This document shows, one piece after another, positions 15,515 through 50,438 of a stretch of 64,000 bases of DNA. The stretch is taken from positions 21,367-85,366 of the IMG/VR virus record IMGVR_UViG_3300017992_000015; one strand, given 5' to 3'. The notes under the pieces are model-generated. The model was not told where the DNA came from. It saw nothing but the letters and a program-made list of their open reading frames with translations, and ran no database searches. The DNA is from a virus. Lineage: Duplodnaviria; Heunggongvirae; Uroviricota; Caudoviricetes. The position numbers were made by a program, and so were the translations under genes. Position 1 is the stretch's first letter. Every line of letters starts with the position of its first letter.

Positions 15515-15530
15515 TTATTCTCCTGAATAA
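15515..15530. repeat. Conserved inverted-repeat element, copy 1 (TTATTCTCCTGAATAA + GATTCAG flank); lies in the 20-nt gap between stop of 15534..15908 and sbcD ATG; RNA form is a hairpin with AGGA loop containing the SD
   Basis: Minus-strand reading GAATCTTATTCAGGAGAATAAAATG; same element at 39438, 22845, 50423. Confidence 0.6.
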
Positions 15531-15533
15531 GAT

Positions 15534-15908
15534 TCAGGCCGAGTGCTCGATCAGCTTTTCAGCCAATGTAAAGAACTGCTCCGGGCCTACTATCGGGTCA
15601 TCGAAATCGATCACGTCGGTGTCTCGGAGCCGATGGACGCGTCCATCTACAGGGTCCCGGACTAAGACGAGGATTTCACCATCCAATAGCATAAGCTTTA
15701 GTCGTTCCGAAAAACAGTCCCTCAGGTCAACAAGCCTGCGAGCCTTCTCGAACAGCACGTCGATGGTCAGGTCATCCCAATATCCCATCCCGCGTGCGTC
15801 CTTTTCAGCCGCCGTAACGGCTCCGATCATCAGCAACGCCTGCGGCATGGCAGCGCAGTCGCGCGCCGCGGCGTCGTTGTACATCTGCATGAAGTGAAAT
15901 TGTCCCAT
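15534..15908 (-). CDS. Hypothetical protein (124 aa; start at Met65 of track ORF)
   Basis: GGAG SD 7 nt upstream of ATG at 15908; upstream part of track ORF is compositionally non-coding and would overlap csrA. Confidence 0.45.
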   Translation of the reverse strand: MGQFHFMQMYNDAAARDCAAMPQALLMIGAVTAAEKDARGMGYWDDLTIDVLFEKARRLVDLRDCFSERLKLMLLDGEILVLVRDPVDGRVHRLRDTDVIDFDDPIVGPEQFFTLAEKLIEHSA

Positions 15909-15977
15909 TTGGTTGCTCCGGGGGTCCGAAGGTGATAAACTGGGCGTATTGTTACTGCAAGCACAAGGAGGTCTACC

Positions 15978-16151
15978 ATGTTGGTCCTGTCCCGCAAAGA
16001 AGGTGAGCAGATCAAGATTGGCGACGACATCACCGTCACGGTCATCCGCACTGGTCGTGATCGGATCCGCCTCGGTGTCGACGCCCCGCCGGATGTACAA
16101 ATCCTGCGAGAGGAGCTCACCTCTGCTGAAGCGCCTGCCGAATCTCGGTAA
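15978..16151 (+). CDS. csrA: Carbon storage regulator CsrA/RsmA homologue (57 aa) - missed by ORF track (<60 aa)
   Basis: MLVLSRKEGEQIKIGDDITVTVIRTGRDRIRLGVDAPPDVQILREEL matches CsrA family (MLILTRKVGESI.IGDDI.ITVL....QVRIGI.AP.DV.V.REEI); AAGGAGG SD 6 nt upstream of ATG; lone plus-strand gene among minus genes. Confidence 0.8.
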   Translation: MLVLSRKEGEQIKIGDDITVTVIRTGRDRIRLGVDAPPDVQILREELTSAEAPAESR

Positions 16152-16422
16152 ACAGCTTCTTCTTAGCGGCGATGGCCAGCTTCTGCGCTTGAGACGTGCT
16201 CACACAGTCGACGGAGTCTTGTGACCCTGTGAGCTGTCCCTTCGCAGAAGCTGGCCACCAGTCCGCCAAATGCTTGTCGCCATATTTGAACTGCCAGTGT
16301 CGTTGGAAGTCGCTGAGCGTTACGGTGATCTCGTCGAAGGCGAGTTCAGTCCGCAGCGTCTCCAGCTCCTCCAGCGCTGTCTTCAGTCTCTCCTGGCGCA
16401 GTGCTCTCTTTGAGGGCCTCAT
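16117..16422 (-). CDS. Hypothetical protein (101 aa); 3' end overlaps csrA convergently by ~35 nt
   Basis: Protein-like ORF; convergent overlap unusual, stop may be read through or ORF marginal. Confidence 0.35.
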   Translation of the reverse strand: MRPSKRALRQERLKTALEELETLRTELAFDEITVTLSDFQRHWQFKYGDKHLADWWPASAKGQLTGSQDSVDCVSTSQAQKLAIAAKKKLFTEIRQALQQR

Positions 16423-17857
16423 CTTCTTCCCGCAGTTGGGTACTACTGACGTCGACCTCTAGCTCGGCCAACCGCAGCTCGCCGCCCCATTCAGGCAGCA
16501 CCGCAGCTTCCGGTAGCAGGTCTTCCCTATCCTTGTAGTCCGGCCCTTTTACCATGATATCGGGCTGCAACGCCTGATACTCTGGTACTGCGTTATCGCC
16601 GTCGAACAGCAGCACCGCATCCACCAACGGATGCGCCGCCAGGCTGAGCGAACGGGCTATCTGACTGTGTTGCGGTCGGCGCTTGATGCGCTCCGCCGAT
16701 TCGTCAGTGTTCACGAGCACCGCCAGGAAGTCACAATGCTCCCTGGCCTGCCGTAGCAGCGAGGTGTGCCCGTCGTGGACGCCGTCGAACACGCCGTTGG
16801 CAACCCCGAAGATTTCGCCGGCGACGGCGACGGATTGCCGCAGGAGACGCAGCTCGTCGAGGGTCACGACCTTTCGATCGAGCCCGAGCGACAGCGTCAC
16901 GCGTTGGTTGAGGCGGTGCAGCGGGATGGGCATAGCACCAATGATCTCGCAGCATAGCGAACCGGACACGTTTGCAAAGCGCGTAGCCGTGCGTGCGTTC
17001 ATTCCGGTGGCAATCCCGTAGGTCATCGCCGACGCCACAGCATCTCCGCAACCGCACGTATCGATCGCAGCGGCGGGCAGCGCTTGCAGCGGGAACCGTT
17101 CCTGCCCGTGGGGCGGAACCAGCACCATTCCGTGGCTGCCGAGCGTGACGAGGACGTCACAATCGAACTTGTTGGCCAGGAAGTCAGCTGCTTCGACCGG
17201 ATCGGTTGCGCGATCTGCATACCCGCAGGCCGCTGCCATCCGCATTGCCTCGTCGGCGTTCGGCGTGAGTAGCGTAGCGCCCTGATAGCTCTCTGTGTGC
17301 GCCGGATCAGGGTCCACGATCACGGGGACGTTGTGATCCTCGCCGTAGAGCAGCACGGACCCGATGATGTCGGGCGTGCACACCCCCTTGTTGTAGTCGC
17401 TGATAAGTATCGCCAAAGGCGGCTTCTCTGCCACAGCGCTAAAAAATAAGGACGCAGTCGTAGACTCGAACGACCCTGTGTAAGGATCGTCCGCGTCAAA
17501 CCGTGCTACAAGGCGATTGTTGGCATAGACGCGGGTTTTTACGGGGGTGCTGTAGTTAGCGTATTTGCCAACCTTCAGCTGCAGGTTGGGAGGCATCGGT
17601 GCCTTGAGATACTCTTCGCCGGCGTCGTCGTCTCCGACCATGCCGACGAACGTCGTTGGGAGGGCCAGATGGGCCAAGCAGTTTGCGGCATTGCCGCCGC
17701 CACCGGGCGCCCAGAACTGTCCCGTGACGCCGATTAGAGGCACCGGCGCCGTACGGTCAAGTCGTCTGGGTTTGCCCACGAAGTAGCGATCGACAATGAC
17801 GGGACCAATGACGACGACGTAATCGTCAGAGGCCAGCTCTTCCGTCGAATTTGTCAT
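16346..17857 (-). CDS. hldE: HldE/RfaE-like bifunctional D-glycero-beta-D-manno-heptose-7-phosphate kinase / heptose-1-phosphate adenylyltransferase
   Basis: N-terminal pfkB kinase domain (VVVIGPVIVDRYFVG..APVP...PGGGGNAANCLAHLA, GCGDAVASA) and C-terminal cytidylyltransferase-fold domain (NGVFDGVHDGHTSLL...LAVLVNTD) colinear with E. coli HldE. Confidence 0.75.
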   Translation of the reverse strand: MTNSTEELASDDYVVVIGPVIVDRYFVGKPRRLDRTAPVPLIGVTGQFWAPGGGGNAANCLAHLALPTTFVGMVGDDDAGEEYLKAPMPPNLQLKVGKYANYSTPVKTRVYANNRLVARFDADDPYTGSFESTTASLFFSAVAEKPPLAILISDYNKGVCTPDIIGSVLLYGEDHNVPVIVDPDPAHTESYQGATLLTPNADEAMRMAAACGYADRATDPVEAADFLANKFDCDVLVTLGSHGMVLVPPHGQERFPLQALPAAAIDTCGCGDAVASAMTYGIATGMNARTATRFANVSGSLCCEIIGAMPIPLHRLNQRVTLSLGLDRKVVTLDELRLLRQSVAVAGEIFGVANGVFDGVHDGHTSLLRQAREHCDFLAVLVNTDESAERIKRRPQHSQIARSLSLAAHPLVDAVLLFDGDNAVPEYQALQPDIMVKGPDYKDREDLLPEAAVLPEWGGELRLAELEVDVSSTQLREEDEALKESTAPGETEDSAGGAGDAAD

Positions 17858-18044
17858 CCTTCTCTTTCTGACTCATATAGGTGTCAAGGTCGAAGTGCAC
17901 CCGACGCAGTCCGCTCACATTCGGCGGATGCGCGGTGCAGTCCGGGCATATGCGGTTGCCCGCATGTTTGGAAAGGAACATGTTCATGCACCGGAGGCAC
18001 CTTCGTGGCTTCTCACAGTGTCTGTCGTCGTTGTACCTGGACAT
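17826..18044 (-). CDS. Small zinc-ribbon protein (72 aa)
   Basis: CLRCMNMF...CPDC Cys4 pattern; overlaps hldE start by ~30 nt. Confidence 0.4.
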   Translation of the reverse strand: MSRYNDDRHCEKPRRCLRCMNMFLSKHAGNRICPDCTAHPPNVSGLRRVHFDLDTYMSQKEKDDKFDGRAGL

Positions 18045-18721
18045 TCCTGTTGGCCAGCTGCGGATACGAGTTTGATTACGCGATACGTGCCATCAGGATA
18101 CTGGAACTCGAAGATCTGGTCCATATCCCTTGTGGCAGGCAACGACGGATTCAGCGTATCCGGAAACTTGTCCGGGGGCAGGCACAGCCACGCATCAAGG
18201 TACGGCCCGCCGTTAGCGGGGGTGGCGTGGACGAGAGCGACAGCAGCGATAGAACCGTCATCAAAACGGGTGTAACACCCGGTGACAATAGCGCCTTCGT
18301 GGTAGGCCGAGTCGAAGTCGGTCATGGTGAGATGGGAGCGCATCTGCTCGTAGTCGAACGGCGTCATTGCTAGCACCGCTGATTTGATGAGATCGGTCGA
18401 CGGCATCTCTGGCACGTCACCGGAGCTCTCAAGTTCGGTGAGGTTGTTCAGCGACGCCAACGACAGGTCGCGGTCGAAGAAAGCCTCGAGGTCAGCCACA
18501 GGGTTCTGCAGCATGTCTTTGACCTCTGCAACCGCCATCTGCGGCGACTGCAGCTCCTCGTCCATGATGTCGATGAACTGTACGAACGCCAACGGCGAGT
18601 TCTTCGCGAAGTCGACGGCGTTGGAGATAATGTCGAACTGCTCTTGAGCCGACAGGGAATGTCTGGACTCGAGCGATGCTAATCGCTCGATAGGATCATA
18701 CTGACCCACGTAAGTCTCCAA
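17984..18721 (-). CDS. Hypothetical acidic protein (245 aa)
   Basis: Long well-formed ORF. Confidence 0.5.
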   Translation of the reverse strand: METYVGQYDPIERLASLESRHSLSAQEQFDIISNAVDFAKNSPLAFVQFIDIMDEELQSPQMAVAEVKDMLQNPVADLEAFFDRDLSLASLNNLTELESSGDVPEMPSTDLIKSAVLAMTPFDYEQMRSHLTMTDFDSAYHEGAIVTGCYTRFDDGSIAAVALVHATPANGGPYLDAWLCLPPDKFPDTLNPSLPATRDMDQIFEFQYPDGTYRVIKLVSAAGQQECPGTTTTDTVRSHEGASGA

Positions 18722-19523
18722 AAATTTCTTTGAATCGTCTGCCTTTCATAGCCTCCAGCAGGTCACGCATGATGCACGGATCGCTGGTAAGCCAGTGTTG
18801 CGGATACCGAAACGCCCGCCCAACCTGGTATGCCAAGTCGTGGGGATCGGGATTTGTGCGTACGACTGCACGCTTGCGAATACCTCTGGGTGGACGCCAA
18901 TAGCGCGGCACAACAGCAAGAACGCTCTGCTGTACGAGCCAGCGGCCACAGGCACCCTCCGGCGAAGGGTGGTCGAATGTATGCGGAGCGATCGTGACCA
19001 TCTGTGCACCACCGTATGCAGCCTGCAGCTGCGTTCTGCGGATCTCGCGTCGGCGGCCGTTATGCTCTGCAAAGACTTCACCCAACCCCGTTACACGGCC
19101 GTGTTCGTTCAGGTAGATCATGTCGACGGCAGCCCGACCGTGTTTTCGTCGCCAACTGATTACGCGGACGTTACCGAGCTTGATGATCAGCTTTTGGGCG
19201 CGCATGTAGATATCGGCAACCTTCCTGGCGTGGCAGAAAGGGCACGGTATCAGTTTGCACGTCTGTGTTATCGGGTCTGATGTGCAGATGCACGGCAGAC
19301 AGTTTTGCGCATAGGCGAGCTTGGGGCTTTGCAAAACAGACCAGCCAGCATTAAAGAGCGCTATGACACGGGCGACCCATGCGCGACGGATATTGGCGAT
19401 CCGCGGCACGAGATAGGTTCGCCAGTCTTCGACTACACCACCATTTGGGATAACGGTGGCATGGTACGCCGCCATGGCCGCAGGGGACCGTGACGGCGTA
19501 CCGAGAATCAGGTCTTTGACCAT
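18696..19523 (-). CDS. Hypothetical Cys-rich protein (275 aa)
   Basis: CLPCICTSDPITQTCKLIPCPFCH cysteine cluster; long ORF. Confidence 0.5.
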   Translation of the reverse strand: MVKDLILGTPSRSPAAMAAYHATVIPNGGVVEDWRTYLVPRIANIRRAWVARVIALFNAGWSVLQSPKLAYAQNCLPCICTSDPITQTCKLIPCPFCHARKVADIYMRAQKLIIKLGNVRVISWRRKHGRAAVDMIYLNEHGRVTGLGEVFAEHNGRRREIRRTQLQAAYGGAQMVTIAPHTFDHPSPEGACGRWLVQQSVLAVVPRYWRPPRGIRKRAVVRTNPDPHDLAYQVGRAFRYPQHWLTSDPCIMRDLLEAMKGRRFKEIFGDLRGSV

Positions 19524-19769
19524 GAGTCACCACCTTGTGAAAAAAGGTAGTAGGAAAGTGAGATGCTGGTAGGCTTACTTGAGCTGCCCCCTCATATAAT
19601 CTCGATGCCATGGACCCCTTAATCACGCACGATTTGCGAGGGACGAGGTCATATAGCCGCCGAGGTTTTACCAGGGCTTACACAGGCGTTTCCGCGCATT
19701 TGGACATGCGTATCACCGCTCTCGCGGTAATTAGGTACTTTCCCACTACCCGCAAGCGGCCGAAGCCGC

Positions 19770-20324
19770 CTACATTTCAGTCAACACTTTAACAGCGCGA
19801 TCAAAGTCCTCCTGGGGGAGGCCAGTGTTCTCAGCTGTAAGTTCTCGTTGCTCTTGATTGCCACGACCGATGGCGCGACGCATCTGCGTCACCTCCTTCT
19901 CAGCCGTCTCAATCAAACTCTCAGCGACCGGTCGTGGCACCATGACCTTCTTCACGATCGTCTCGGACGTCCGCTCGTTGCGACCGTACCAATTGTCCGA
20001 CCCGTCGGCCTTCAGTGCCTTCCTCAGCAGGTTCTTGTCCTCTCCGAGTATACCGATCATCTTGACCGCCGTAGACAGTAGCATGCTTTTGTCCCCGACG
20101 GTGATCGACACCATCCGGTTGTACGCTTGCTGCATCTCCATGATCAAGACGTAATCGTACTGCAGTCCGCGGCGCGTCCCCCGATGGTCGAGTGGATCGC
20201 CGAGATCCTCGTCGTCGTACTGCTTAAGACTCACCTGGTACGTGTCGGTCGCGCGTGCGATGCTGCTCTTGAGCAAGAGCAGGACGTCACGGATCTGCTG
20301 ACCGTCGGTCACGAAACCTGACAT
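19770..20324 (-). CDS. Hypothetical protein (184 aa)
   Basis: Well-formed ORF following 250-bp non-coding gap. Confidence 0.5.
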   Translation of the reverse strand: MSGFVTDGQQIRDVLLLLKSSIARATDTYQVSLKQYDDEDLGDPLDHRGTRRGLQYDYVLIMEMQQAYNRMVSITVGDKSMLLSTAVKMIGILGEDKNLLRKALKADGSDNWYGRNERTSETIVKKVMVPRPVAESLIETAEKEVTQMRRAIGRGNQEQRELTAENTGLPQEDFDRAVKVLTEM

Positions 20325-20337
20325 TGCCGCCTCCTTT

Positions 20338-20742
20338 CTAGTCGACTGCGAATCCTCCGCAATGGAGGAGAAATTGTACCCAACTTTTCAGATGGGCATC
20401 ACTTGTACGGTGTGCGGTTTCAACCGGATCGCCGCGGGCGAGCTCTTCATCGCCTACGAAGCGTCCGGTACCCTCTGCACAATAGCACCCCAGATCGACA
20501 GCGTGCCCATTGTGGTTCTTCTCCAACCACTGGGAGAACCTGATGGCCATTTGCGTGCAGGTTTCCTGGTCGTCAGGGCCTGCGCCGTCGTTATAGCTCA
20601 TCTGCTCCAGCAACCCCTCAGAGAGCAGGTCGCCGCAAAGCTTGCACATCAGCTGGTGGATTGGTCGCCAGCTCCACACGTTCGCACGGAAGTACTCACC
20701 GACGGGGGCGTCGGGGTTCTTTCCAGAAACGTCCATTCCCAT
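20338..20742 (-). CDS. Hypothetical protein (134 aa)
   Basis: ORF in tight operon spacing. Confidence 0.45.
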   Translation of the reverse strand: MGMDVSGKNPDAPVGEYFRANVWSWRPIHQLMCKLCGDLLSEGLLEQMSYNDGAGPDDQETCTQMAIRFSQWLEKNHNGHAVDLGCYCAEGTGRFVGDEELARGDPVETAHRTSDAHLKSWVQFLLHCGGFAVD

Positions 20743-21207: not shown

Positions 21208-21626
21208 AACTCCTCTCCTTTTGTAAAAATGTGCGTGGGGTGTGCTGTCACGCCAAAGGCTCCACGGGCTACGAATACAGCATTGGAAGAGCATTGTTTT
21301 CCCGACACTTCGATTGTCGTCTCTCAACCTTAACTACGGACTCCGCTGGTACTACCGTAGCAAACTGCATCCCTCTGACTTCACGAACTCTGATTCGCTA
21401 CGGCGACCGAAGCCTTTCGGTAGTACGTGGCCGGTCGTAGCGTCGCATCCGCTGTCGCTTCCCGGTGGTGACACCATGCCCAGTCGAAGCCGCCGATCCG
21501 TTGCCAACGGTCATGCTGCACGGTTATCTTGTGGTGGCCGGGCGGCTAACCCGGTCCAGAGCACTTCCACTCGCCACTCCTTAGCTGATGGCTGCTTCTA
21601 AGCCCACAGCCCCACACGCACATGTA

Positions 21627-22231: not shown

Positions 22232-22765
22232 TTAGCTGATCAGATCGGACACCGTGGTTTTCGATGCCCATTCCGTCGCTTTGTCCATCTGCGTCGTCAT
22301 CTCGGCCATGAACTGACCGAAGAGTCGCGGCATGGCGGTGGGTTTCGCAGTCTTCATCTGTTCGAAGAGGGTCTGCGACTTTTCCAGCGACATGCCATTG
22401 AGGTCCACGCTCTTCTGCGGGGTCGTGGTCTCGGGCGTCTGTGCCTCTGCCCGTGCCGGCGTCTTCTTGGACTTGCCCACCGGCTTCGATTTCTTCCCGT
22501 TCTTGACGTCCGAGTCGAAGTTGTAGATGTTCTGCGCGGTGACCCCGCTGTGGGGGTAATCTCGCAGGATCTTCTCGTTCAACAGAACGGTGGCCGGCAT
22601 GCCTTTGATTCGGCGCTTCCGGCCATTGCTCATCTTGATGACACGGTCAGTCTTGGGGAACTTCTTCCGATACCGCCGGATCAAGAGGGTCCGGTCGTTC
22701 GGGCCAAGCTCCTCGGTCTTGCTGATCATCGGAGCACGCTTCTTCTTTCGCTTTCCTTTGGCCAT
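22232..22765 (-). CDS. Lys-rich basic protein (177 aa), putative DNA-binding/histone-like
   Basis: AAGGAGG SD 4-5 nt upstream of ATG at 22765; KRKKKRAP...KKSKPVGKSKKTPAR tracts. Confidence 0.5.
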   Translation of the reverse strand: MAKGKRKKKRAPMISKTEELGPNDRTLLIRRYRKKFPKTDRVIKMSNGRKRRIKGMPATVLLNEKILRDYPHSGVTAQNIYNFDSDVKNGKKSKPVGKSKKTPARAEAQTPETTTPQKSVDLNGMSLEKSQTLFEQMKTAKPTAMPRLFGQFMAEMTTQMDKATEWASKTTVSDLIS

Positions 22766-22844
22766 ATGAGGCCTCCTTCTGGGAAAGAACAACACTTATG
22801 GGGGCGGCCACATACCGCCCCCTGGGAACGCTTCTTATTCACGT

Positions 22845-22860
22845 GAATAAAATTGGACGG
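22845..22860. repeat. Conserved inverted-repeat element, copy 2 (perfect 16-bp palindrome TTATTCACGTGAATAA) about 80 nt upstream of gene 22232..22765
   Basis: Flanks conserved with copy at 50423 (ATTTTATTCACGTsAATAAGA on minus strand); followed by GC hairpin GGGGCGG-N7-CCGCCCC at 22801..22822 in the 5' leader. Confidence 0.55.
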
Positions 22861-22898
22861 GTCCCTCAGCAGAGGGAGCACATCCATACCCCGCCTTA

Positions 22899-22952
22899 TA
22901 ATAAACGACTAAAGTGCCTTTGGCCCTCTGGACCAACTTTAGTCGTTTATTA
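22899..22952 (-). terminator. Long perfect inverted repeat (17-bp arms TAATAAACGACTAAAGT, 20-nt loop) plus two CCTTCC/GGAAGG hairpins downstream of gene 23019..23357; putative transcription terminator/insulator
   Basis: Arms at 22899..22915 and 22936..22952 are exact reverse complements; additional hairpins 22956..22975 and 22994..23010. Confidence 0.4.
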
Positions 22953-23018
22953 CATTACCTTCCTTACGGAAGGCAATGCAATGGAGTCAGTACCTTCCTT
23001 CGGAAGGAACTAACTCCT

Positions 23019-24765: not shown

Positions 24766-25129
24766 TTGGCGAGTCGCTGGCGTGTATCAGGTTCTTTTCG
24801 CGGACAGCGCCGAAGTCACCACGGATGGTGCCTGCAGCGGGTGCCGTGAAGCTGCCAACAGCAGACCGTACGATCGTGATCGTGTCGTCGGGCGCGTGCG
24901 GCGCGTGCGCCACACGGGCCTCGATCGGGCCGCTGGTCATAAATTCTTGGATGCGAGGCAGGTAGGGCTCGCCCTTGAATTTTGCGTACAACTCCTCGCA
25001 GTGGCGGGGGAGCATGATCAACTCTTTCACCCGCAGGAAGCGGATGCCCCGATCCTCGAGCCTGGTGAGGACGCGCCCCACCAGGCCCCGTTTGAGCGTA
25101 TCGGGTTTAAGCAGTACCAGCGTCTCCAT
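24704..25129 (-). CDS. ndk: Nucleoside diphosphate kinase
   Basis: EFMTSGPI identical to E. coli Ndk; active-site NLIHASDS (NIIHGSDS consensus); LLKPD...RGLVG N-terminal motif. Confidence 0.8.
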   Translation of the reverse strand: METLVLLKPDTLKRGLVGRVLTRLEDRGIRFLRVKELIMLPRHCEELYAKFKGEPYLPRIQEFMTSGPIEARVAHAPHAPDDTITIVRSAVGSFTAPAAGTIRGDFGAVREKNLIHASDSPSAAKVEIEIFFPGFPGDVGD

Positions 25130-25877
25130 CGATTTGCTCTTTCAAGACGTGATTGTGGATGATATTTTCGGCTTTGATGATCAACTGCCGAACACGTTCG
25201 CGGGTGATTCCGTAAACTTTACCGATCTCCCAAAGCTTGTCGCCGAGATAGCGACGCCGCAGTATGTCGACTTCACGCTCCGTCAACTTCTCGAACGCCT
25301 CGTAGACCATATCGGCTTGGTCCTCGCTCTCGACGTCGGCAACGAAGTCGCGCAGCGTCTCGTCTTCAATCATCTCGTACACGAATATCCCGGGATTTCG
25401 CCTATTGCCCGTGCCCACGCGTTTATGCAACGACACGTAGTCTGCAAACAGCTCCGGACAGTCTTTAGTCCAGTCCGGCCGCTTGACACCCTTTTCGTCC
25501 CAGCGGGGCGGGTAGTATACGAGGCGCCTATGGCACTTTTTGTACCATGAGATTGCGGCATGGATCGAGAACCAAGCAGCGGTTACGAATCGGTTGCCCG
25601 TTTCTGGTCGCCAGCGCTCGACTGCCTTCATGAGGCCGATCACGGCCTCCTGGAAGAGATCGTCGACGGAGAAGTGGGGATCGTTGTACGCTGCGCGCCA
25701 GGCCTGTTGAAAGGCCAGCCTGTAGCAACCAGCAATCCCGCGGTTCCGCGCGTCGTCGTCCCCTGCCTTACCCCTCTTAATGAGGGCCTCCATCTCCTCG
25801 ACTTCCATCAGTTTGCCGTGTCGCTGCAGTAAGGCTGTCGCCCAGTCCTGCTGCGCATGCGCACATTTTGTTTCCAT
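25107..25877 (-). CDS. Sigma-70 family RNA polymerase sigma factor (regions 2 and 4; start uncertain, Met25 used)
   Basis: Region 2 DLFQEAVIGLMKAVERW...FVTAAWFSIHAAI; region 4 HTH ITRERVRQLIIKAENII. Confidence 0.7.
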   Translation of the reverse strand: METKCAHAQQDWATALLQRHGKLMEVEEMEALIKRGKAGDDDARNRGIAGCYRLAFQQAWRAAYNDPHFSVDDLFQEAVIGLMKAVERWRPETGNRFVTAAWFSIHAAISWYKKCHRRLVYYPPRWDEKGVKRPDWTKDCPELFADYVSLHKRVGTGNRRNPGIFVYEMIEDETLRDFVADVESEDQADMVYEAFEKLTEREVDILRRRYLGDKLWEIGKVYGITRERVRQLIIKAENIIHNHVLKEQIDGDAGTA

Positions 25878-25927
25878 TAACAAAATTGGTCCTCCCCGGA
25901 TCCCGAAAGAACGGTATATTTGACGCC

Positions 25928-26800
25928 ATGAAACTATCACGACGGGCATTCATAGCGGCGTCAGCCGGCAGCGTACTGGCGGGACCAATGTACGCTGCCG
26001 GCGACGATCGCTCCAATGAGGCTGCCCGTGAACCGCTGTGGACCTACGCGCCGGTTGTCAGAGCGGTAGACGACACACGGTTGGGGCAGGTATTGGCGGA
26101 CATTGATTCGCGGCTGCCCGCAACGGGCCTGACAAGCTCCGCGACTTACCGTGACTCAGATCTGGGCACGTGGGCGCATGAAGCGACCCATGGTGTGAAC
26201 TCGCTCATGAGGAACGAGCATGGTGCCGGCACGGGTGTGGAAAACGCACTCTATTGTTTGAACGGCAGGACCGCGCTCATCGAAGAGCCGCGGCCCTGCA
26301 CTATCAGGGATGCTGCCCGGTATGTCCCAACCGGACTCAGATCGCGAATGTACGCGCAGTACATGATCGGCAGAACTCGCCAATGGAATCAGATCCCCCT
26401 CTACATCCTAGACGAGTGGGTCGCTTACCTGAACGGCGCGACGCATAACGTGTGGATGGCGAAGAATGGTGGTTCCATCGGCGACGGTGCTGGCGACCTG
26501 CTTTTCACAGCAGAGTCAGCAATCAACGCACTGGCGATTGTCTGTCATGTACAACAAGAGATTCAGGCGGGCCGCGTGTCCTACAACGACACCCAGCTGC
26601 GCCATGCCTTCGCGTTCAATTGGTCCAGGATGATGACACTATTTGCCGAGGCAAAACCCGTCAGTCAGCTCTTTATGGACCCGATAGCGTACTATCGGAA
26701 GTTCTCAGAGGGCCGTGACGGTGACGCACTGCGACGGTGGTGTCGCACACACCTGGGAGCAGCCTGGTCTTCAGAAGTTATGTGGCTTGTGGCCACATGA
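25928..26800 (+). CDS. Putative Tat-secreted protein (start at Met21 MKLSRRAFIAAS)
   Basis: Twin-arginine motif SRRAFIA + hydrophobic stretch + AAG cleavage-like site; 290-aa plus-strand ORF divergent from sigma factor gene. Confidence 0.45.
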   Translation: MKLSRRAFIAASAGSVLAGPMYAAGDDRSNEAAREPLWTYAPVVRAVDDTRLGQVLADIDSRLPATGLTSSATYRDSDLGTWAHEATHGVNSLMRNEHGAGTGVENALYCLNGRTALIEEPRPCTIRDAARYVPTGLRSRMYAQYMIGRTRQWNQIPLYILDEWVAYLNGATHNVWMAKNGGSIGDGAGDLLFTAESAINALAIVCHVQQEIQAGRVSYNDTQLRHAFAFNWSRMMTLFAEAKPVSQLFMDPIAYYRKFSEGRDGDALRRWCRTHLGAAWSSEVMWLVAT

Positions 26801-27005: not shown

Positions 27006-27030
27006 GAACAGCGTGCCGAGTCGAATGATC

Positions 27031-39150: not shown

Positions 39151-39436
39151 TTTGCGCCTTGAGGTTCGATAGAACGGTCTCGGCCACGGTGAACTTTTCC
39201 TGCAACGCTGCGGTCACAGTGCGCTGGAGCTTTGTGAGTTGCTTACCAGCCTTAGCGAGAAAGATCGGGTCGTCAGGCCCGATAAGCACGTTCGAGGGCT
39301 CGGACTCCGTAAGGCCGTCGGCGTAGATAAACGTGAATGCCACGCCTTCGACCTCCGGAATGTCCCTTAGAGTCTCCTCGCATGCGTCAACAGCAGCCTG
39401 AAGCTGCTCATTGAACGGTACTTTGCGTTCGGACAT
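39014..39436 (-). CDS. Hypothetical acidic protein (140 aa; start at Met15), 3' third overlaps RNase H ORF
   Basis: ATG at 39436 directly follows conserved element copy 3; 137-nt out-of-frame overlap with 38506..39150 unresolved. Confidence 0.35.
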   Translation of the reverse strand: MSERKVPFNEQLQAAVDACEETLRDIPEVEGVAFTFIYADGLTESEPSNVLIGPDDPIFLAKAGKQLTKLQRTVTAALQEKFTVAETVLSNLKAQIDEHIAKAKDQEGNQAEETPDQGDSDAGRPPETPAHPDVGHPDSG

Positions 39437-39437
39437 A

Positions 39438-39453
39438 TTATTCTCGTGAATAA
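39438..39453. repeat. Conserved inverted-repeat element, copy 3 (TTATTCTCGTGAATAA + GATTCTG flank) spanning stop of 39438..39833 and abutting ATG of 39014..39436
   Basis: Minus-strand reading GAATCTTATTCACGAGAATAATATG; 21/23 identical to copy 1. Confidence 0.55.
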
Positions 39454-39833
39454 GATTCTGCTTTCGCCTCGAGCGCATCCATCAGATACGTCGCGGCACT
39501 AGCAATGCATGCAGCAGCCAGTGCGTACACCGGCACGTAGAGGATTTCACCCCAGATGGCTGGAAGCCAATAGCCGGGGAGCCAGAAGAGTACCAGAAGC
39601 CAAAAGCAGGCCTGGCAGGTTAGGCAGAAACGACATTCTGCCAAGTATGCGATCTTCATACGAACCATTGACCAACGGGTGGGCATTTCGTACGAGCTGT
39701 GCTGGCGCATCGTGGGCGTTGCCCAGGCACGAAGCCAATCGCGCCAGCTTTCGAATAGCCCGCCGTCTTGCAACCACACGCTGACGAGGGTATGTGCCGC
39801 CATAGCGAGCACCAAAAGATCGATTAAAGTCAT
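39438..39833 (-). CDS. Integral membrane protein (131 aa; start at Met72)
   Basis: Multiple hydrophobic helices (LIDLLVLAMAAHTLVSVWL, CFWLLVLFWLPGYWLPAIW, VPVYALAAACIASAA). Confidence 0.45.
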   Translation of the reverse strand: MTLIDLLVLAMAAHTLVSVWLQDGGLFESWRDWLRAWATPTMRQHSSYEMPTRWSMVRMKIAYLAECRFCLTCQACFWLLVLFWLPGYWLPAIWGEILYVPVYALAAACIASAATYLMDALEAKAESYSRE

Positions 39834-40456
39834 TCTTCCCACTCTCCGCAGCCCTTCGCACTTGCGAAGCCTCTTGCTACATGGAAAAATCCGTAAAGAA
39901 CGAAGCCAATAATGATGGCTGGTACAAGCTTGAAAGGCCCGTCGAAGATGACGGCTCCAAGCAAGGCCAGCACGATCAACCATATGGCCACGCGAAACCA
40001 ACTTGCAAACATGGTTACTCTGTAGATCCAAGATGCCATGGGTCATTCTGAGTCGAAGACCTGTCCGGCGGAGGCCATCCGTCCCGTATCAATTCCGCCG
40101 GTGGTAGTGGCGGATCCAACGGGAGGGAGAAGATGGGATTATCCTCCGGGACTGTGGTCGGGACCGGTCGCCTGAATGTTGGCCGGAGACCCGCACGCTC
40201 AAGAAACAACCTCGCATTCATTGTTACTGCCATTAGCAGCTCCTCCCAGGCTGGAGTGTATCAGACTTCGCGTTTTAGCATGTCTGTGCTATCATGTCAC
40301 AGATAGCAGACCACCATTATGATCACCCAAGCGATCAAAACAGTGACCCAGAACGGGCGGGTTCGTCGAGCGACCTCGCCACAGAAGTGACCAGCAGCAT
40401 CGAACTTTGCAAGCTCGCGCTGACGATACCTCTCTACCTCAAACGGAGTTCTATCC

Positions 40457-42681: not shown

Positions 42682-42684
42682 AAT

Positions 42685-43529: not shown

Positions 43530-43541
43530 CGTATCCTCCTT

Positions 43542-44552: not shown

Positions 44553-44574
44553 CCTAAAAGTGCGCAGAGCGCAC
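44553..44574 (-). terminator. Rho-independent terminator (GTGCGC-TCT-GCGCAC + TTTT) after gene 44629..45414
   Basis: Minus-strand reading GTGCGCTCTGCGCACTTTTAGG; immediately followed by tRNA T-arm-like GGTTCGAGTCC. Confidence 0.55.
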
Positions 44575-44628
44575 GGGTCCCTCTAACATAAATCTAAACC
44601 TGACTCTAAAGCTCTGTTATGCCTGCGC

Positions 44629-45414: not shown

Positions 45415-45696
45415 CGTCTTTCTCCTTCTCGAACTCCTCCAAGCGCCCTCGGTCGCGCATCTCGAGTTCGTCTTTGCGTTTGAATCTACCCGAGGCGTTG
45501 CCCAGCCACCGAACGTCGGTGCACAGGGTGCAACGTACACTTTTCCGGCGTTTGCCGCCGGTTTTGCGTCGTCGGTTTCCCATGGTCAATCCCCATAGGC
45601 ATAAAGGATAGCATACGTCAGTACCAGCAGCGCCGGGATAAGCAGCGTGCCTATTAATACTGCCGCAAGCTGGTGGTGTTCCTTCATCTTAGTCTC

Positions 45697-46587
45697 CTAG
45701 ATGATGATAGCACCGGGATACTTCCAGTCGTACCTCAAATGGCCGTCCCGGAAGTAAATGAGCTGGCGGATCTCTTCTGGATTGAGCGTATCCGTCAAGC
45801 AATTGTTCGTGCAGACGTTCTGGCCTCCGACATCGTAGACCATTGCGCCATGTGGAAGTGCCAGCAGTTTCTGCCCACCCAGCTCCTCGACTGCGCGCTG
45901 GATGGCCAGATCGCCGGCGATCTTAGCGCCGTCACTGTCCTTTTGGTTGAGCTGATGCTCGTGGACCCATTTGGCGACGCCGGGATGTGCGACGCGTTCG
46001 TCAGCGTCCGGCGCAGTGACCTCGCGGATAGTGAACTGCTCGACATCGAAGCAGGCGCAGAAGTCGATCATGTCGTGGATGTGGTCGGACGTCTCAACGC
46101 CGCCTTTCATGGCCGTGCAGTTGATCCGCACGGACATACCGGCTTTGTGGATGCGCTCGATCAGCGTCGACAGCTCGAACTCCTTGCCTTTGTAGCCCAT
46201 CATGTCGCTGTTGATCAGTTTCTCGTGATGTACCACCGAGACACAGATGAGCGTCATGCCGGAGCACGCCCACTCGTTTATCCATCTGTCGTCCTTCTCG
46301 TGTGCCAGCATAATCCCGTTGGTCTGCAGTTCGATCAACGGGAAGTGCACGGCGAGGCGGCGGACGTAGGCGGAAATCTCTTTGGGGACGAGTGTGGGCT
46401 CGCCTTTACCGGTAATCAGCGCAGTGGTCACGCCGCTGCGCTTTGCCAATTCGCAGGCGACCTCACATCGCCTCCAGTTTGGCCTCTTTACGGTTTCTGC
46501 CTGCGTGGTCATCTTGCTCACGCAGAACGGGCAGCCGGCGTTGCATGCGGACGTGCCGCAAACGACGCTAAGAGTCCCGAATTTCAT
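45697..46587 (-). CDS. Radical SAM enzyme (CxxxCxxC; viperin/MoaA/QueE-like core), function unknown
   Basis: VCGTSACNAGCPFC 4Fe-4S motif near N-terminus, GKGEP SAM-binding (GGE-like) motif, IELQTNG; 296 aa. Confidence 0.65.
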   Translation of the reverse strand: MKFGTLSVVCGTSACNAGCPFCVSKMTTQAETVKRPNWRRCEVACELAKRSGVTTALITGKGEPTLVPKEISAYVRRLAVHFPLIELQTNGIMLAHEKDDRWINEWACSGMTLICVSVVHHEKLINSDMMGYKGKEFELSTLIERIHKAGMSVRINCTAMKGGVETSDHIHDMIDFCACFDVEQFTIREVTAPDADERVAHPGVAKWVHEHQLNQKDSDGAKIAGDLAIQRAVEELGGQKLLALPHGAMVYDVGGQNVCTNNCLTDTLNPEEIRQLIYFRDGHLRYDWKYPGAIII

Positions 46588-47077
46588 AGAGCTTACGTCC
46601 TTTCATTCTCCAGAGGCGTCCGCCGTAGGTTGCGTACGGCAGGCCGATCAGTTTGCCAGCACCCTCACGGTTCACGAAGCCGTCGGCCGGCTCCGGCGGA
46701 TCGGTATAGACCCAGAAGTCTCTAAGAGTGAGATCGTCACCGAAGCGCACCGACGGTATCTTCGCTACCATCCGCGGAGTAAAACCGTCTCCGACGGCCA
46801 CGGGCTTGAAGAACCGGTCGATGTCCTCTTCGGTTGCAACGACTATCCTGGCATTGCCGAGCAGCTGGCCGTCCTTCAACACGGACAGGCTGTAGTCACC
46901 GCGGTAGAGGCCCAGAACACGCCGGGCGGCCACGACTGGGATCGCATAGATCGTCGCGGCGTAATGTTCGATGATCTGTTTGTCGCCCGTCGGTGTGGGT
47001 TTGGCTTCCGCGCGCGGGAGCATCCCGGTGGCCGCAACGGCAGCGGCCGATGTCTTCAGCATGTCTCGTCTGTTCAT
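46568..47077 (-). CDS. Tat-signal secreted protein (169 aa)
   Basis: MNRRDMLKTSAAAVAATGMLPRAEA twin-arginine signal peptide. Confidence 0.55.
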   Translation of the reverse strand: MNRRDMLKTSAAAVAATGMLPRAEAKPTPTGDKQIIEHYAATIYAIPVVAARRVLGLYRGDYSLSVLKDGQLLGNARIVVATEEDIDRFFKPVAVGDGFTPRMVAKIPSVRFGDDLTLRDFWVYTDPPEPADGFVNREGAGKLIGLPYATYGGRLWRMKGRKLYEIRDS

Positions 47078-47107
47078 TGTGAACCCTCCCGGTAGTTGTA
47101 TGCTTGA

Positions 47108-47148
47108 AAGTAAAAGTAGGGGCGGCGGAAGCGGTCAACCGCCGCCCC
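47108..47148 (-). terminator. Rho-independent terminator (GGGGCGGCGG-N10-CCGCCGCCCC + T-rich) after gene 47185..48576
   Basis: Perfect 10-bp GC stem followed on minus strand by TACTTTTACTTTC. Confidence 0.55.
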
Positions 47149-47184
47149 TGTTGCCTTTCTTGAGAAAGACACTCTGATGGTTTG

Positions 47185-48576
47185 CTACATGCTGAGCGTA
47201 ACCTGCGCGTGACGGTCCATGTTGACCGACGGCTCGGCGAAGTATTGCTGATCTTCGCGGGCGTCGACTTCAACGACCTCGTCGCAGCAACGCTTCAACG
47301 TCGCGATATGCGCCGCGAGGTTGGCGATGTTCGGCCCCGAATACGTGGCGACCTTGACGTCCGCGCTGACGTGGCTCGTCGGGGCTTTCTCCACGCGTTC
47401 GGTGATCTTCGCCGAGCCTTCCTTGAGCGCCGCGGCGATGCTGGCATCGGCTTCTTTCTTGGCGGCCTCGCACTTGGTGAAGTGGGCCTCCAGCAACTTG
47501 ATATACTCTTCTCGATTGGCGTTGAATGACTGCATAGCGTCACAAGCTCCTTCTTTGGTTTCAGAAACAGTTTTGGTTCGACCGGTACTCATGGCTTTCA
47601 TAGGGTACCGGCTTGATTTCTTGGGCTTCTTGCGTCGAGGCCCAGCACCTCCGGCGACCGGTCGTCTGTACAGCACAATATCGCGGTGGTCCAACCAGGC
47701 CAAAGCCAGCTTGCCCTCCGCATTGATGTATTTATACGCGATGCCGCAGCTATCGCGATTGCTGACAGTGACCATGTCACCCTTGCGCAGCTGCCGATGC
47801 CCATCTGGGTGCATGCAACCGTGCGGATTTTTGACAACTACCACGTCTCTTGCGCGGCAGTCTTTGAACACATCATCACACCCGTCACGGCGGACGTCCT
47901 TATATGGGATATTGTGTTCTTGACCGTAGCCATCATTTACACGTTTGTACCAAACCGATTTACCGTCCGTGCGTAACACCCTCAGGTGGTCGCCTACCTC
48001 CAGCAAAGCGCCGATGTGTTGCTTCCGCGCTGAGACGTTGTTACGTAGCACAGTCACAGTGCACCCAGGTATAATCTCTGCATCGTCGGAACGCCAGAGC
48101 AAGCGGCAATCAGTCGCATGTATCGACTGTGTGCCGCCGCCCGGCAGATCGTAATGAATCCACCGGTCCTCAGCGTGTGATACCTGGATAACATGTCCGC
48201 GCTGCAGATACCCGGCGTGATGCGGGTTGTGCGCAGAAATCGGTTTCGATACGACGTGTACCAAATCACCGGATCTGAATTCCTGTGGGGCGTCCTCACC
48301 GCTCGCACGTGCGATGACTTCGACATCGCCGATCGGAAAGGTGTGAAGGTTGCCCTCGTACGTCCGGAATTCAACTCCGGGTCCGCCGTCAGCACGCACT
48401 CCGCGGACTCTGACAACGGTGAACGTGTCGCCGACTACTAAGTTGCCGGCACGATCTTCCGCACGAGCCCACATGCTGGCTTTGATGACTCGGCACCGGT
48501 CCCCTACACGTGGGGGACCAAGTCCGTCATTTGGCACTGTTTCTTTTCTCCTATTGGGGTGAACATTAACGATCAC
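47185..48576 (-). CDS. Hypothetical protein with tandem small beta-domain repeats (463 aa) and Lys-rich linker
   Basis: Recurrent ~60-aa units containing GD..V.V / RVGDRCRV, RSGDLVHV, GDHLRVLR, RKGDMVTV; PRRKKPKKSSRYP linker. Confidence 0.5.
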   Translation of the reverse strand: MIVNVHPNRRKETVPNDGLGPPRVGDRCRVIKASMWARAEDRAGNLVVGDTFTVVRVRGVRADGGPGVEFRTYEGNLHTFPIGDVEVIARASGEDAPQEFRSGDLVHVVSKPISAHNPHHAGYLQRGHVIQVSHAEDRWIHYDLPGGGTQSIHATDCRLLWRSDDAEIIPGCTVTVLRNNVSARKQHIGALLEVGDHLRVLRTDGKSVWYKRVNDGYGQEHNIPYKDVRRDGCDDVFKDCRARDVVVVKNPHGCMHPDGHRQLRKGDMVTVSNRDSCGIAYKYINAEGKLALAWLDHRDIVLYRRPVAGGAGPRRKKPKKSSRYPMKAMSTGRTKTVSETKEGACDAMQSFNANREEYIKLLEAHFTKCEAAKKEADASIAAALKEGSAKITERVEKAPTSHVSADVKVATYSGPNIANLAAHIATLKRCCDEVVEVDAREDQQYFAEPSVNMDRHAQVTLSM

Positions 48577-48868
48577 GGGATACGCGATGAGCCACCCGAT
48601 CGATCGGGCGGATCACCAACGGAGTGGACGCTATCTTCGAACGCGCTACATGACCATCTAACTGCATACCGTCCTCGTCGGCGGTATTAACCCCTGGGGG
48701 ATAGGTCGAACCGCATTTGAGATATCCCATCTCCAATAATCGATTTTTGAGCCAGATTAACACGTGGCCGCCGGTGATCCGGATGCCGCACCGTGCTGCT
48801 GGATAAGTAAACCCGCGGGCAACCATACCCTCGGATAGATATTCGGCCTGTGCCAGGGTGACAAGCAC
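48566..48868 (-). CDS. Hypothetical protein (100 aa)
   Basis: ORF overlapping upstream gene end by 11 nt. Confidence 0.35.
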   Translation of the reverse strand: MLVTLAQAEYLSEGMVARGFTYPAARCGIRITGGHVLIWLKNRLLEMGYLKCGSTYPPGVNTADEDGMQLDGHVARSKIASTPLVIRPIDRVAHRVSRDR

Positions 48869-49107
48869 GCCCAGTCGCCGAAAACGTAGACTAGCAGCGT
48901 AAACGGAGAATTACCTGCAGAACATGCGTCGTCCCACTTCGGAATATACATCGTTTAGCTGCACAGCCATCGCCCGAAAGACGTCGCAAGCGATAGCGCC
49001 GCCAAGCCCAGCAACACCAAGAAGATGAAGCAGCCGCAACCGAGGCAGCCGCCATCGTCGATGTGTACCAAGCTACGATCACCCGATTCCTCAGACATAG
49101 GGCACTC

Positions 49108-49377
49108 CTATTCGGGCATGAGTGGAACGAACTCAATCAGTCCGTTGTTGATGAGGTGATCATACAGACGCGACGCGTCCTCACGATCCCAGCGGGTGAT
49201 GTATCGTAGACGCTGGCGCAGCGCGTTCTTAGCCGGCCCGGTGCCGTGCCATGCGCTCTTACTGCCAAGCTTTAACCATTCACCCTGAAACTGTATGCCG
49301 ACAACTTTGTTCGGCTCACAACGTCCGACCTGTGCGTCGAACGCATCCTCAAGTTCTTCAATATCGCGTGTAGACAT
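49108..49377 (-). CDS. Hypothetical protein (89 aa; start at Met16)
   Basis: Short gap to upstream gene. Confidence 0.4.
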   Translation of the reverse strand: MSTRDIEELEDAFDAQVGRCEPNKVVGIQFQGEWLKLGSKSAWHGTGPAKNALRQRLRYITRWDREDASRLYDHLINNGLIEFVPLMPE

Positions 49378-49384
49378 GTTTTCC

Positions 49385-50095
49385 TCACGTGGCTGGTACG
49401 GTTCCCAGCGCCAAGCGATCACGGCGTGACATCGATTTTTGAACGCACCACTGACAATCGCGGCAGTTACATCCTTCGACCAAACCCTGCGGGCAGGATC
49501 GTAGATACGGCTCTGGCCAGACTACACCACGGTGGTCGCACCAAACAACATCGGCGTACCACGGGATGGTCTCGTCGTCGGACGACCGGAGGTGCGCTAC
49601 GCGTACATACGGTACGTGCGGCGGCGCACCATTACGTGCATGCGTTTCGGCGTCTGTGGACCAGAACATGCTCATGTTTGGCAGCGCAGCTAGCTGTCGC
49701 AGGTGTCTGTACAGCCACGGAATCCGCCAGGAGCGAGTATACGTCCAGAACTTAATGTGCGGCGACGCCTGCACGATCTTACGCCATTTGTTGATGTAAG
49801 CCGCGCTGTAGAAGTCACCCACGGCATGGATGCGAAAGATGCCGGCACGCTTGCGTGCCAACTGCGCGATCATGCAATCGGCGAAGTCTTCGCGCAGTGT
49901 TGCCTTGTAGAAGCGTTCATATGACGCCACGGAATGCGGCTGCGCGCAGCACCCCTTTTTCCCGTAGCACAACTCATCGCAAAGATGCGACCGCCCCGGG
50001 CATGTTTTAGCTCTTGGTAGCGACACGTGGTGGCTGTTGCCGACTGTATCGTTGCGATACTGGATGATTGGCAAAGCCTCAGCAATCATTGCCAT
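49385..50095 (-). CDS. Cys-rich protein, paralogue A of 60634..61329 (TCPGxSxxCxxxCYGKKG motif family)
   Basis: Colinear similarity to 60634..61329: SLP..TCPG.S..C...CYGKKG, GDF...YI.KW, YTRSWRI, SDDE..P.Y.D.V; start at Met15 aligns with paralogue N-terminus and abuts tRNA-Gln. Confidence 0.5.
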   Translation of the reverse strand: MAMIAEALPIIQYRNDTVGNSHHVSLPRAKTCPGRSHLCDELCYGKKGCCAQPHSVASYERFYKATLREDFADCMIAQLARKRAGIFRIHAVGDFYSAAYINKWRKIVQASPHIKFWTYTRSWRIPWLYRHLRQLAALPNMSMFWSTDAETHARNGAPPHVPYVRVAHLRSSDDETIPWYADVVWCDHRGVVWPEPYLRSCPQGLVEGCNCRDCQWCVQKSMSRRDRLALGTVPAT

Positions 50096-50097
50096 AG

Positions 50098-50170
50098 AAG
50101 CCCCGGCAGGACTCGAACCTAGCAATACGGGAACCAAAATCCCGTGTGTTACCGATTACACCACAGGGCT
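50098..50170 (-). tRNA. tRNA-Gln (anticodon TTG)
   Basis: 73-nt cloverleaf: 7-bp acceptor AGCCCTG/CGGGGCT, anticodon stem CGGGA/TCCCG with loop TTTTGGT, T-loop TTCGAGT. Confidence 0.7.
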
Positions 50171-50410
50171 TTCCGTGCGATCGAGCCGCACGCCTCGTGG
50201 ATTCCGCTCGTCGGACGGCGGATCCGGCTCCGGTTCGGGTTTCCGGAGCAGCTCGTTAAGATCGACCATCGTGGTCGCCGTCGAAACGACGACGCCATTC
50301 ACGTAAAGGTCGAGAACCAAGTCAAGCAAGCCGTTGTCACGATCGAAGTGGCTCAGCGTGACCTGCAGGTTGCGTGCGCACCACTGGCGCAGAGCTTCCT
50401 CGAAATCCAT
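50156..50410 (-). CDS. Small hypothetical protein (84 aa); C-terminal 15 nt overlap tRNA-Gln
   Basis: ATG at 50410 preceded by GGAG and by conserved element copy 4. Confidence 0.35.
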   Translation of the reverse strand: MDFEEALRQWCARNLQVTLSHFDRDNGLLDLVLDLYVNGVVVSTATTMVDLNELLRKPEPEPDPPSDERNPRGVRLDRTESPVV

Positions 50411-50422
50411 CGGTCTCCAATC

Positions 50423-50438
50423 TTATTGACGTGAATAA
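50423..50438. repeat. Conserved inverted-repeat element, copy 4 (TTATTGACGTGAATAA) 12 nt upstream of ATG of 50156..50410
   Basis: Minus-strand reading ATTTTATTCACGTCAATAAGATTGGAGACCGATG; flanks match copy 2. Confidence 0.5.

Follow-up and report, generated by a model that had tools for sequence, protein, structure and literature searches.

What kind of signal is an AT-rich palindrome that recurs before some genes and inside others in the genome of an uncultured jumbo phage? The question is raised by a 64-kb stretch of DNA (IMG/VR record IMGVR_UViG_3300017992_000015, positions 21,367 to 85,366; hereafter, the window) belonging to a metagenomic phage contig of ~220 kb (ENA ERZ27256770 k141_2006669, 220,266 bp), in which four copies of the inverted repeat TTATTC-N4-GAATAA had been flagged. 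The sites are nonrandom, symmetric, clade-specific, and orthologously conserved, and their half-sites changed together between lineages. From this pattern, we infer that a protein binds the palindrome, that its target is DNA rather than RNA, and that the outcome is regulatory. We see about an even chance that the palindrome is an operator-like site on double-stranded DNA (dsDNA) for a symmetric, phage-specified protein that would control genes of replication, recombination, and nucleotide metabolism.

The window holds four exact copies of the palindrome and one with a single mismatch (Table 1), and nearly all genes around them are carried by the minus strand. Dinucleotide shuffles of the window (100 replicates) contain the exact palindrome 0.00 times on average versus the 4 occurrences observed, and with up to two mismatches, 5 matches are found versus 0.77 expected; matches with three mismatches are at chance level (9 versus 8.25 expected). 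The hexamer GAATAA is found five times in the window, each time as part of the palindrome. The doubt that such an element might be no more frequent than in shuffled sequence, raised by the original prediction itself, is dispelled by these counts. The four copies that it listed are real, and a fifth, exact one (7081–7096) had been overlooked; the positions 15515, 39438, and 50423 stand, whereas 22845 marks the second half-site of a copy that starts at 22835. The division into two sub-consensus sequences, type A and type B, and the 21/23 identity between copies 1 and 3 were correct.

Table 1. Copies of the palindrome in the phage genome and selected genes of the window. Positions are those of the window unless a locus is named.
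Feature	Position	Strand	Sequence or remark
Copy 0	7077..7100 (core 7081–7096)	−	gGAAC TTATTC TCAT GAATAA aATG
Copy 1	15511..15534 (core 15515–15530)	−	tGAATC TTATTC AGGA GAATAA aATG
Copy 2	22831..22854 (core 22835–22850)	−	TTATTCACGTGAATAA; perfect 16-bp palindrome
Copy 3	39434..39457 (core 39438–39453)	−	aGAATC TTATTC ACGA GAATAA tATG
Copy 4	50419..50442 (core 50423–50438, TTATTGACGTGAATAA)	−	tGATT TTATTC ACGT CAATAA GATTGGAGACCG ATG; one mismatch
Hybrid copy outside the window	L089 2878–2893 (window-equivalent 64300–64315)		TTATTC-ACGA-GAACAA
Hybrid copy outside the window	L296 16617 (~2.5 kb before the window start)		TTGTTT-CCAT-GAATAA
CsrA homologue	15978–16151	+	MLVLSRKEGEQIKIGDDITVTV...REEL; antisense to its neighbours, just upstream of the SbcD-like gene
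Sigma-70-like factor	25107..25949		
Family-A DNA polymerase	928–4113	−	Fused N-terminal uracil-DNA-glycosylase-superfamily (UDG) domain
Bifunctional PfkB-kinase/cytidylyltransferase (HldE-like)	16346–17857	−	Kept across the clade

The copies occupy several kinds of position. Copy 0 lies inside a conserved gene for a 227-residue protein (6888..7571), where it encodes W-E-L-I-L-M-N-K-M, ~215 nt upstream of the gene for a DnaB-like helicase (5221..6864); the original placement of all copies at gene junctions therefore went too far. Copy 1 occupies the entire gap between the TGA stop codon of a 124-residue gene (15534–15536) and the ATG of the gene for an SbcD-like nuclease (14296..15513), with the Shine–Dalgarno (SD) sequence AGGAG in its spacer and the ATG 1 nt past the arm. 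Copy 3 stands 1 nt before the ATG at 39436 of a 140-residue gene and overlaps the end of the upstream open reading frame (ORF 39438..40046), whose TAA stop codon it includes, as had been noticed originally. Copy 2 is found in a hairpin-rich intergenic region of ~220 nt, 69 nt upstream of the ATG at 22765 of a very basic, lysine/arginine (K/R)-rich protein of 177 residues, and a GC hairpin (22800–22822) comes after it. Copy 4 has its SD downstream of the palindrome and the ATG 12 nt on, and it precedes an 84-residue ORF (50156..50410) in the tRNA region. Of the start-codon distances first given (0, ~80, 0, and 12 nt for copies 1 to 4), only that of copy 4 is exact, the element being 1 nt from the start in copies 1 and 3 and 69 nt in copy 2; the orientation said to be shared by all copies has no meaning for a palindromic core. 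Just outside the window, the same genome has two further copies, both of them hybrid combinations of half-sites (Table 1). The right flank GATTGGAGA is common to copy 4 and the hybrid copy in L089, with the ATG 12–13 nt on.

Homologues of the SbcD-like nuclease delimit a family of uncultured jumbo phages, and the comparison set comprised 80 SbcD-anchored metagenomic loci together with loci from exact-protein look-ups. The sub-clade that bears the motif was defined by SbcD proteins at least 47% identical (L003–L019 and IMG/VR fragments); a pattern scan of IMG/VR gave mostly chance matches and supplied extra sites from relatives already known. Members of this clade have the same palindrome, as TTGTTC-N4-GAACAA, at orthologous places, which bears out the conservation in related phages on which the original prediction had been made to depend. 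In L007, 4 sites with at most one mismatch are present versus 0.02 expected. The site at the SbcD start has orthologs in 10 related genomes, and that inside the 227-residue gene has orthologs with TTGTTC/GAACAA arms in 7–8 genomes (L005, L007, L010, L015, L018, L019, and L098), outgroups without the motif having a different peptide at the position of copy 0. The ortholog of copy 3 (L160 5146) reads TTGTTC ACAG GAACAA gtATG, with protein starts MAERK versus MSERK in the two genomes, and confirms both the start codon after copy 3 and the conservation of the site. Copy 2 has a positional counterpart at L007 4716 (TTGTTCAGCTGAACAA and a GC hairpin), upstream of a homologous K/R-rich gene.

Other sites are present in relatives and not in the window: one at the start of the NDK gene in L003 and L005 (possibly also in L007) and one at a small zinc-finger gene in L012 and L015. 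Sites turn over between genes from one genome to another, in the manner of a regulon. At the arm opposite a GAACAA/TTGTTC hexamer, clade members show either 0–1 mismatches or a random-like 3–6 (a single arm has 2), whereas partner arms in outgroups all fall in the random range of 2–6 mismatches; this marks the palindrome as a discrete feature specific to the clade.

Tabulation and alignment of 37 nonredundant clade sites, for which selection had fixed only the 12 core positions, yielded a 24-bp consensus with two-fold symmetry, rAAty-TTRTTC-nnnn-GAAYAA-aATk, the arms being TTATTC and GAATAA in the window. The unselected flanks mirror each other, positions −4..−1 (R-A-T-Y) versus +16..+18 (A-A-T), with similar information content, and the G of ATG is the only asymmetry of the consensus. 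Spacers free of SD or coding constraint are self-complementary (ACGT or AGCT) in 3 of ~10 such sites. The arms show no sign of being maintained by base pairing in RNA: paired cells amount to 85.6% of the alignment versus 85.0% after shuffling, and the covariation score of 0.106, versus 0.096, is reached by 108 of 500 shuffles. At pair 3/12, there are nine uncompensated single-sided changes, with the variant half-site TTGATC occurring on either arm, and mismatches at this pair (A:A, U:U, or C:A) are inherited stably at the SbcD site in L005, L009, L010, and L011. C at −1 is coupled with A at +16 in 7 of 9 sites.

The window genome differs from its relatives at the third half-site position counted from outside, where A or T is found in 12 of its 14 half-sites; the relatives have G or C in 60 of the 61 half-sites tabulated and A or T in none. 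Comparison of the orthologous sites indicates that the window lineage replaced G:C by A:T in nearly all copies, and in both of their half-sites. For copy 0, which is intragenic, the switch amounts to a V-to-I replacement and a synonymous AAC-to-AAT change. Such a concerted change is not expected from hairpins that act in cis and drift independently; it is expected from a recognition partner whose preference has shifted.

The sites have the generic properties of dimeric operators, namely, symmetric half-sites, fixed spacing, no dependence on pairing, and several copies per genome. A homodimeric, sequence-specific protein, specified or exploited by the phage clade, would bind the ~24-bp site on dsDNA, at copies located before or just inside the genes for the SbcD-like nuclease, the gene pair leading to the DnaB-like helicase, NDK (in relatives), and small genes. 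With hardly any intergenic DNA available, the palindrome would have been superimposed on translation-initiation regions, with SD bases held in the spacer and the outer AAT of the palindrome merging into ATG. The bound protein would serve as an operator complex or a roadblock, and the gene set might be switched on or off during infection, much as by the stoperators of mycobacteriophage L5. Such an operator is favoured by the symmetry, by the lack of selection for pairing, and by those copies whose position translation cannot account for: copy 0 and L003 8336 are intragenic, and copy 2 and L007 4716 have their next starts 69 and 424 nt away, respectively. Of the two functions first proposed for the element, the operator of a dimeric DNA-binding protein is the better fit to the symmetry, the absence of covariation, the joint change of half-sites, and the position of these copies.

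Several observations weigh against this reading. Pfam and PHROGs searches with ~45 window proteins, together with precomputed Pfam assignments, found no helix-turn-helix or transcription-factor domain except in the sigma-70-like factor, and no connection was found between the palindrome and that factor, which had been put forward as a possible ligand. No promoter element that could be the target of repression is conserved upstream of the sites. The SD and ATG are phased as tightly as in a translational operator, the ATG lying 1–4 nt past the arm in most gene-start copies, and the hybrid TTGTTT...GAATAA is fully pairable in RNA through G:U. In addition, the two hybrid sites make the shift in specificity a strong preference rather than an absolute one. 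As to the protein itself, a comparison of the presence/absence profiles of neighbouring genes with the presence of the motif produced no clean candidate factor, and searches of PDB sequences with the 227-residue and K/R-rich proteins found nothing significant. An AlphaFold2 model of the K/R-rich protein encoded after copy 2 (pLDDT 62, pTM 0.29) was too poor for a fold search.

Dispersed regulatory repeats of comparable layout are known from other phages. The stoperators of L5-type (Cluster A) mycobacteriophages, which are temperate and have the repressor gp71, are 13-bp asymmetric, orientation-dependent sites that act on DNA to block transcription. Like them, the palindrome occurs as dispersed copies in very short gaps or over stop and start codons within co-directional gene arrays. 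It is not an L5-type stoperator: the phage site is symmetric, none of the window genes checked was recognised as a repressor gene, and no lysogeny function was identified. The conserved inverted repeats (CIRs) of the temperate Streptomyces phage phiC31 are dispersed palindromes of ~17 bp near early gene starts, bound by the phage repressor at early promoters. They share with the element described here the repetition of palindromes near gene starts, and they differ from it in that no promoter signal lies beside the latter.

The positional logic is shared with the start-associated sequences (SASs) of Cluster K mycobacteriophages, which have a 13-bp asymmetric consensus, GGGATAGGAGCCC, located 3–7 bp upstream of start codons; they occur in many copies, at nonstructural genes only and mostly before ATG, have an AGGAG SD core, and sometimes include the upstream stop codon (PMC3203893). 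The extended SASs (ESASs) are separate 17-bp inverted repeats upstream of SASs, with a consensus that varies by subcluster and with departures in the arms that do not support RNA pairing, for which the authors propose DNA-binding proteins of differing specificity; the function of both SASs and ESASs is unproven (PMC3203893). SAS/ESAS and the palindrome are alike in being short repeats specific to a phage group, with an SD inside and the ATG within a few nucleotides. They differ in that the element described here is one 24-bp palindrome with the SD inside its 4-bp spacer, in that sequence, phage, and host are unrelated, and in that some copies are intragenic. Membership among SASs was rejected, the sequence being unrelated, the palindrome two-fold symmetric, and the positional logic alone held in common. 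The palindrome is thus a familiar kind of phage regulatory repeat in a new form and not a member of any named family. It provides an independent, nonmycobacterial case of the unexplained "start-associated" repeats, one in which comparative data argue for recognition by a protein over RNA pairing. In a phage clade in which almost no protein has a recognisable function, a 24-bp site with its target genes (SbcD, the helicase block, NDK, and small genes) gives a testable handle on the regulation of uncultured jumbo phages, and the natural variation between TTGTTC and TTATTC can be used to seek the cognate protein by covariation.

The alternative that survives best, which we nevertheless regard as rather unlikely, is a translational operator on RNA: a hairpin would display the SD in its loop and pair both the spacer and the AU of AUG, and a phage RNA-binding protein would repress early or middle genes through it, the protein being RegA-like or coat-protein-like in its logic or, for the copies with a GGA loop, the phage CsrA. 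This would account for the SD-like AGGA, CGGA, or xxAG plus GA in the spacer of most gene-start copies, phased with the ATG as described above, and for the remaining gene-start copies, which have GGAG directly after the palindrome and the ATG 11–20 nt on. C-to-T changes that preserve a G:U pair, seen 3–4 times, also speak for it, as does the full pairing of the TTGTTT/GAATAA hybrid. On the other hand, covariation does not exceed that of shuffles, the nine uncompensated mid-stem mismatches are stably inherited, and certain copies lie within genes or well away from any start; the hairpins predicted for the RNA are weak, at −2.8 to −4.7 kcal/mol where any form, and copy 1 prefers another fold. 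The hairpin that was originally proposed to sequester the SD fails as worded, the SD-like bases being in the 4-nt loop and not in the stem, with the weak hairpins and the mismatches counting against it as well. Searched with Rfam at the gathering threshold, the window yielded its four tRNAs only. The other fold of copy 1 (15534–15513, minus strand) is a 7-bp hairpin formed by the upstream flank, CCUGAAU/AUUCAGG. At a predicted −7.1 kcal/mol, it exceeds the motif hairpin in stability, and part of the SD would be paired within it; relatives do not keep this flank pairing.

A role for CsrA in such a mechanism is suggested by a canonical CsrA gene beside the SbcD site (Table 1) and by the GGA in the loop of copy 1. 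Sites of CsrA/RsmA are short SD-overlapping hairpins whose loop presents GGA, and copy 1 and most copies at the SbcD and NDK starts of relatives resemble them in having AGGA or CGGA in a potential 4-nt loop over the SD. The CsrA–SbcD arrangement is kept in L005, L007, L010, L012, L015, L016, L019, L040, L042, L049, L053, L055, L058, and others, including loci where SbcD is only 25–30% identical. In the palindrome, however, it is the stem sequence that is conserved and not the GGA, which is present in copy 1 and in 22 of the 37 clade sites and missing from 6 of the 7 copies of the window genome. Nor does the distribution of CsrA follow that of the motif: it is conserved in distant relatives that lack the palindrome, and in L017 none is encoded within 10 kb of it. 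CsrA was accordingly rejected as the general factor.

We consider it still less probable that the palindrome is the site of a DNA transaction, be it the core site of a tyrosine recombinase of the type found in recombinase-in-trio (RIT) elements, the site of an initiator or partition protein, or a recombination hot spot. Conserved arms around a variable centre are the layout of recombinase core sites, yet spacers that differ between copies, as here, would block strand exchange. Copy 2 lies in a hairpin-rich intergenic region, and copy 0 is embedded in the immediate upstream neighbour of the helicase gene, a placement that resembles the origins within the initiator genes lambda O and SPP1 gene 38. 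An iteron or origin cluster was rejected, half-sites being unclustered and not over-represented outside the palindromes. The ParB site parS (TGTTNCACGTGAAACA) is a 16-bp palindrome with a conserved CACGTG centre; copy 2 matches it at 12 of 16 positions, but the centres of the phage sites vary (AGGA, TCAT, and ACGA), and no ParB domain is among the Pfam hits of the window. Recombination of gene cassettes was likewise discounted, a 1.4-kb indel between L012 and L015 not being located at a site.

The link to RIT elements (defined in PMC10214605 and its references) arose from a scan for ATTTTGTTC-N4-GAACAAAAT in one genome per bacterial or archaeal species, which returned 86 loci versus ~9 expected by chance under equal base frequencies. 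About 35 of the 86 are RIT elements, with three tandem tyrosine recombinase genes (Pfam and phmmer), in Acidobacteria, Betaproteobacteria, and Gammaproteobacteria. At these loci (L210–L295; for example, L266 4092–4113 and L222 2659–2680), the palindrome ATTTTGTTCC-CG-GGAACAAAAT adjoins two direct GGCACAWAA repeats that resemble half-sites; in L266, the sequence beyond the palindrome is a fragment of an IS110-type DEDD transposase gene. The 9-nt arm and the spacing are identical to those of the phage motif; the match could be a coincidence, the chance of which is put at 1–4% by a rough estimate. RIT palindromes have a fixed CCGG-like centre, one copy per element, further direct half-sites, and three adjoining recombinase genes, whereas the phage loci have variable centres and dispersed copies, and tblastn found no RIT-like tyrosine recombinase in the window or in any clade locus. 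One could imagine that the phage clade took over a RIT-type core site together with its binding protein and dispersed it over the initiation regions of its replication and repair genes, where it would signal regulation or recombination; the G:C-to-A:T change would then be a natural re-targeting of the protein. This idea strikes us as a long shot. The identity of the arms is an unexplained lead; if it is not coincidence, phage regulatory sites would be linked to poorly understood mobile elements.

Less probable again than a DNA transaction is a cassette for translation initiation that acts purely in cis, with no factor in trans; in it, a U-rich enhancer would be followed by the SD, an A-rich spacer, and the ATG, or else a cis hairpin would do the work. 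A/U-rich flanks around the SD are known translation enhancers, and in the outgroups L008 and L023, the right half GGAGAACAMAAT followed by the start codon is found at the SbcD start without the left arm; at this start, the right half is older than the palindrome. A cassette of this kind leaves unexplained the exact complementarity of the arms, the bimodal partner arms, the conserved left flank, the concerted change from G:C to A:T, and the copies away from start codons.

Least probable of all is a promoter, whether read by the RNA polymerase of the host together with the sigma factor of the phage or by an RNA polymerase of the phage's own. In its favour, the motif is genome-specific, AT-rich, and upstream of genes in a GC-rich phage that encodes a sigma-70-like factor. 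However, any SD within or behind the element has to be part of the transcript, so that transcription would need to start no further downstream than the left arm, and on that side conservation does not extend beyond −4. Two-fold symmetry is foreign to promoters, and a 4-bp spacer is unfit for −35/−10 hexamers 16–18 bp apart. A sigma-70 scan had no hit at copy 2; its one hit at copy 4 is a 9/12 match, no better than chance, that lies on the other strand and across the palindrome itself. Sigma-factor, T4-late-like −10, and leaderless-mRNA promoters were rejected on the same grounds of geometry and transcription of the SD, and an intrinsic terminator was rejected on account of the AT-rich stems and of a terminator scan that found none at copies 2 and 4. 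The Gram-positive LexA box, GAAC-N4-GTTC, has the inverse order of half-sites (GTTC-N4-GAAC here, ATTC-N4-GAAT in the window), and resemblances to FNR/CRP and ArgR sites and to DnaA boxes were excluded by half-site order, spacing, or variable centre.

The genome that carries these sites has no close isolated relative. Megablast of 10 kb of the window against 50,697 phage records gave no match, the best tblastn hits of its DNA polymerase reach only 24% identity, and an IMG/VR search with the helicase protein gave no match; genes identical to those of the window are found on JGI 3300017991 Ga0180434_10000435. The window has a G+C content of ~58% and encodes replication and repair functions that include the family-A DNA polymerase, an NAD-dependent ligase, SbcC- and SbcD-like proteins, and SNF2-like and DnaB-like helicases, next to a large terminase, the HldE-like kinase/nucleotidyltransferase, NDK, the sigma-70-like factor, CsrA, and four tRNAs (Table 1). 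The polymerase with its fused UDG domain and the HldE-like gene hint at an unusual nucleotide or DNA-modification chemistry.

Some further features were observed around the sites and in relatives. The region around copy 2 (22796–23018) contains a perfect 17-bp stem (22899–22915/22936–22952) and two imperfect hairpins of 15–16 bp, and it could be a noncoding RNA, a terminator cluster, or an origin-like region. The 84-residue ORF after copy 4 shares 15 nt with tRNA-Gln. Between tRNA-Glu and copy 4, a stretch of ~440 nt (50439–50876, minus strand) has no convincing ORF on the gene strand; Rfam, at the gathering threshold, matches nothing in this stretch, which could represent an unannotated RNA. 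At the NDK site of L003 (2283–2330), ATC takes the usual position of ATG and is followed by the NDK N-terminus NTFAIIK, and at L007 3692–3720, which possibly corresponds to the same gene, ATT is found where ATG is usual; these may be noncanonical start codons or shifted starts. In L072, a distant relative, another AT-rich palindrome, CAAAATACGTATTTTG, occurs four times (3042, 7656, 8329, and 9936), once at 13 nt before the SbcD start, which we count in favour of the operator reading. Palindromes of still other sequence recur in further distant relatives, namely in L055 and L057 (TGGAGACGTCTCCA, three sites each) and, three times within 5298–5833, in L049 (TAATACTCTnnAGAGTATTA).

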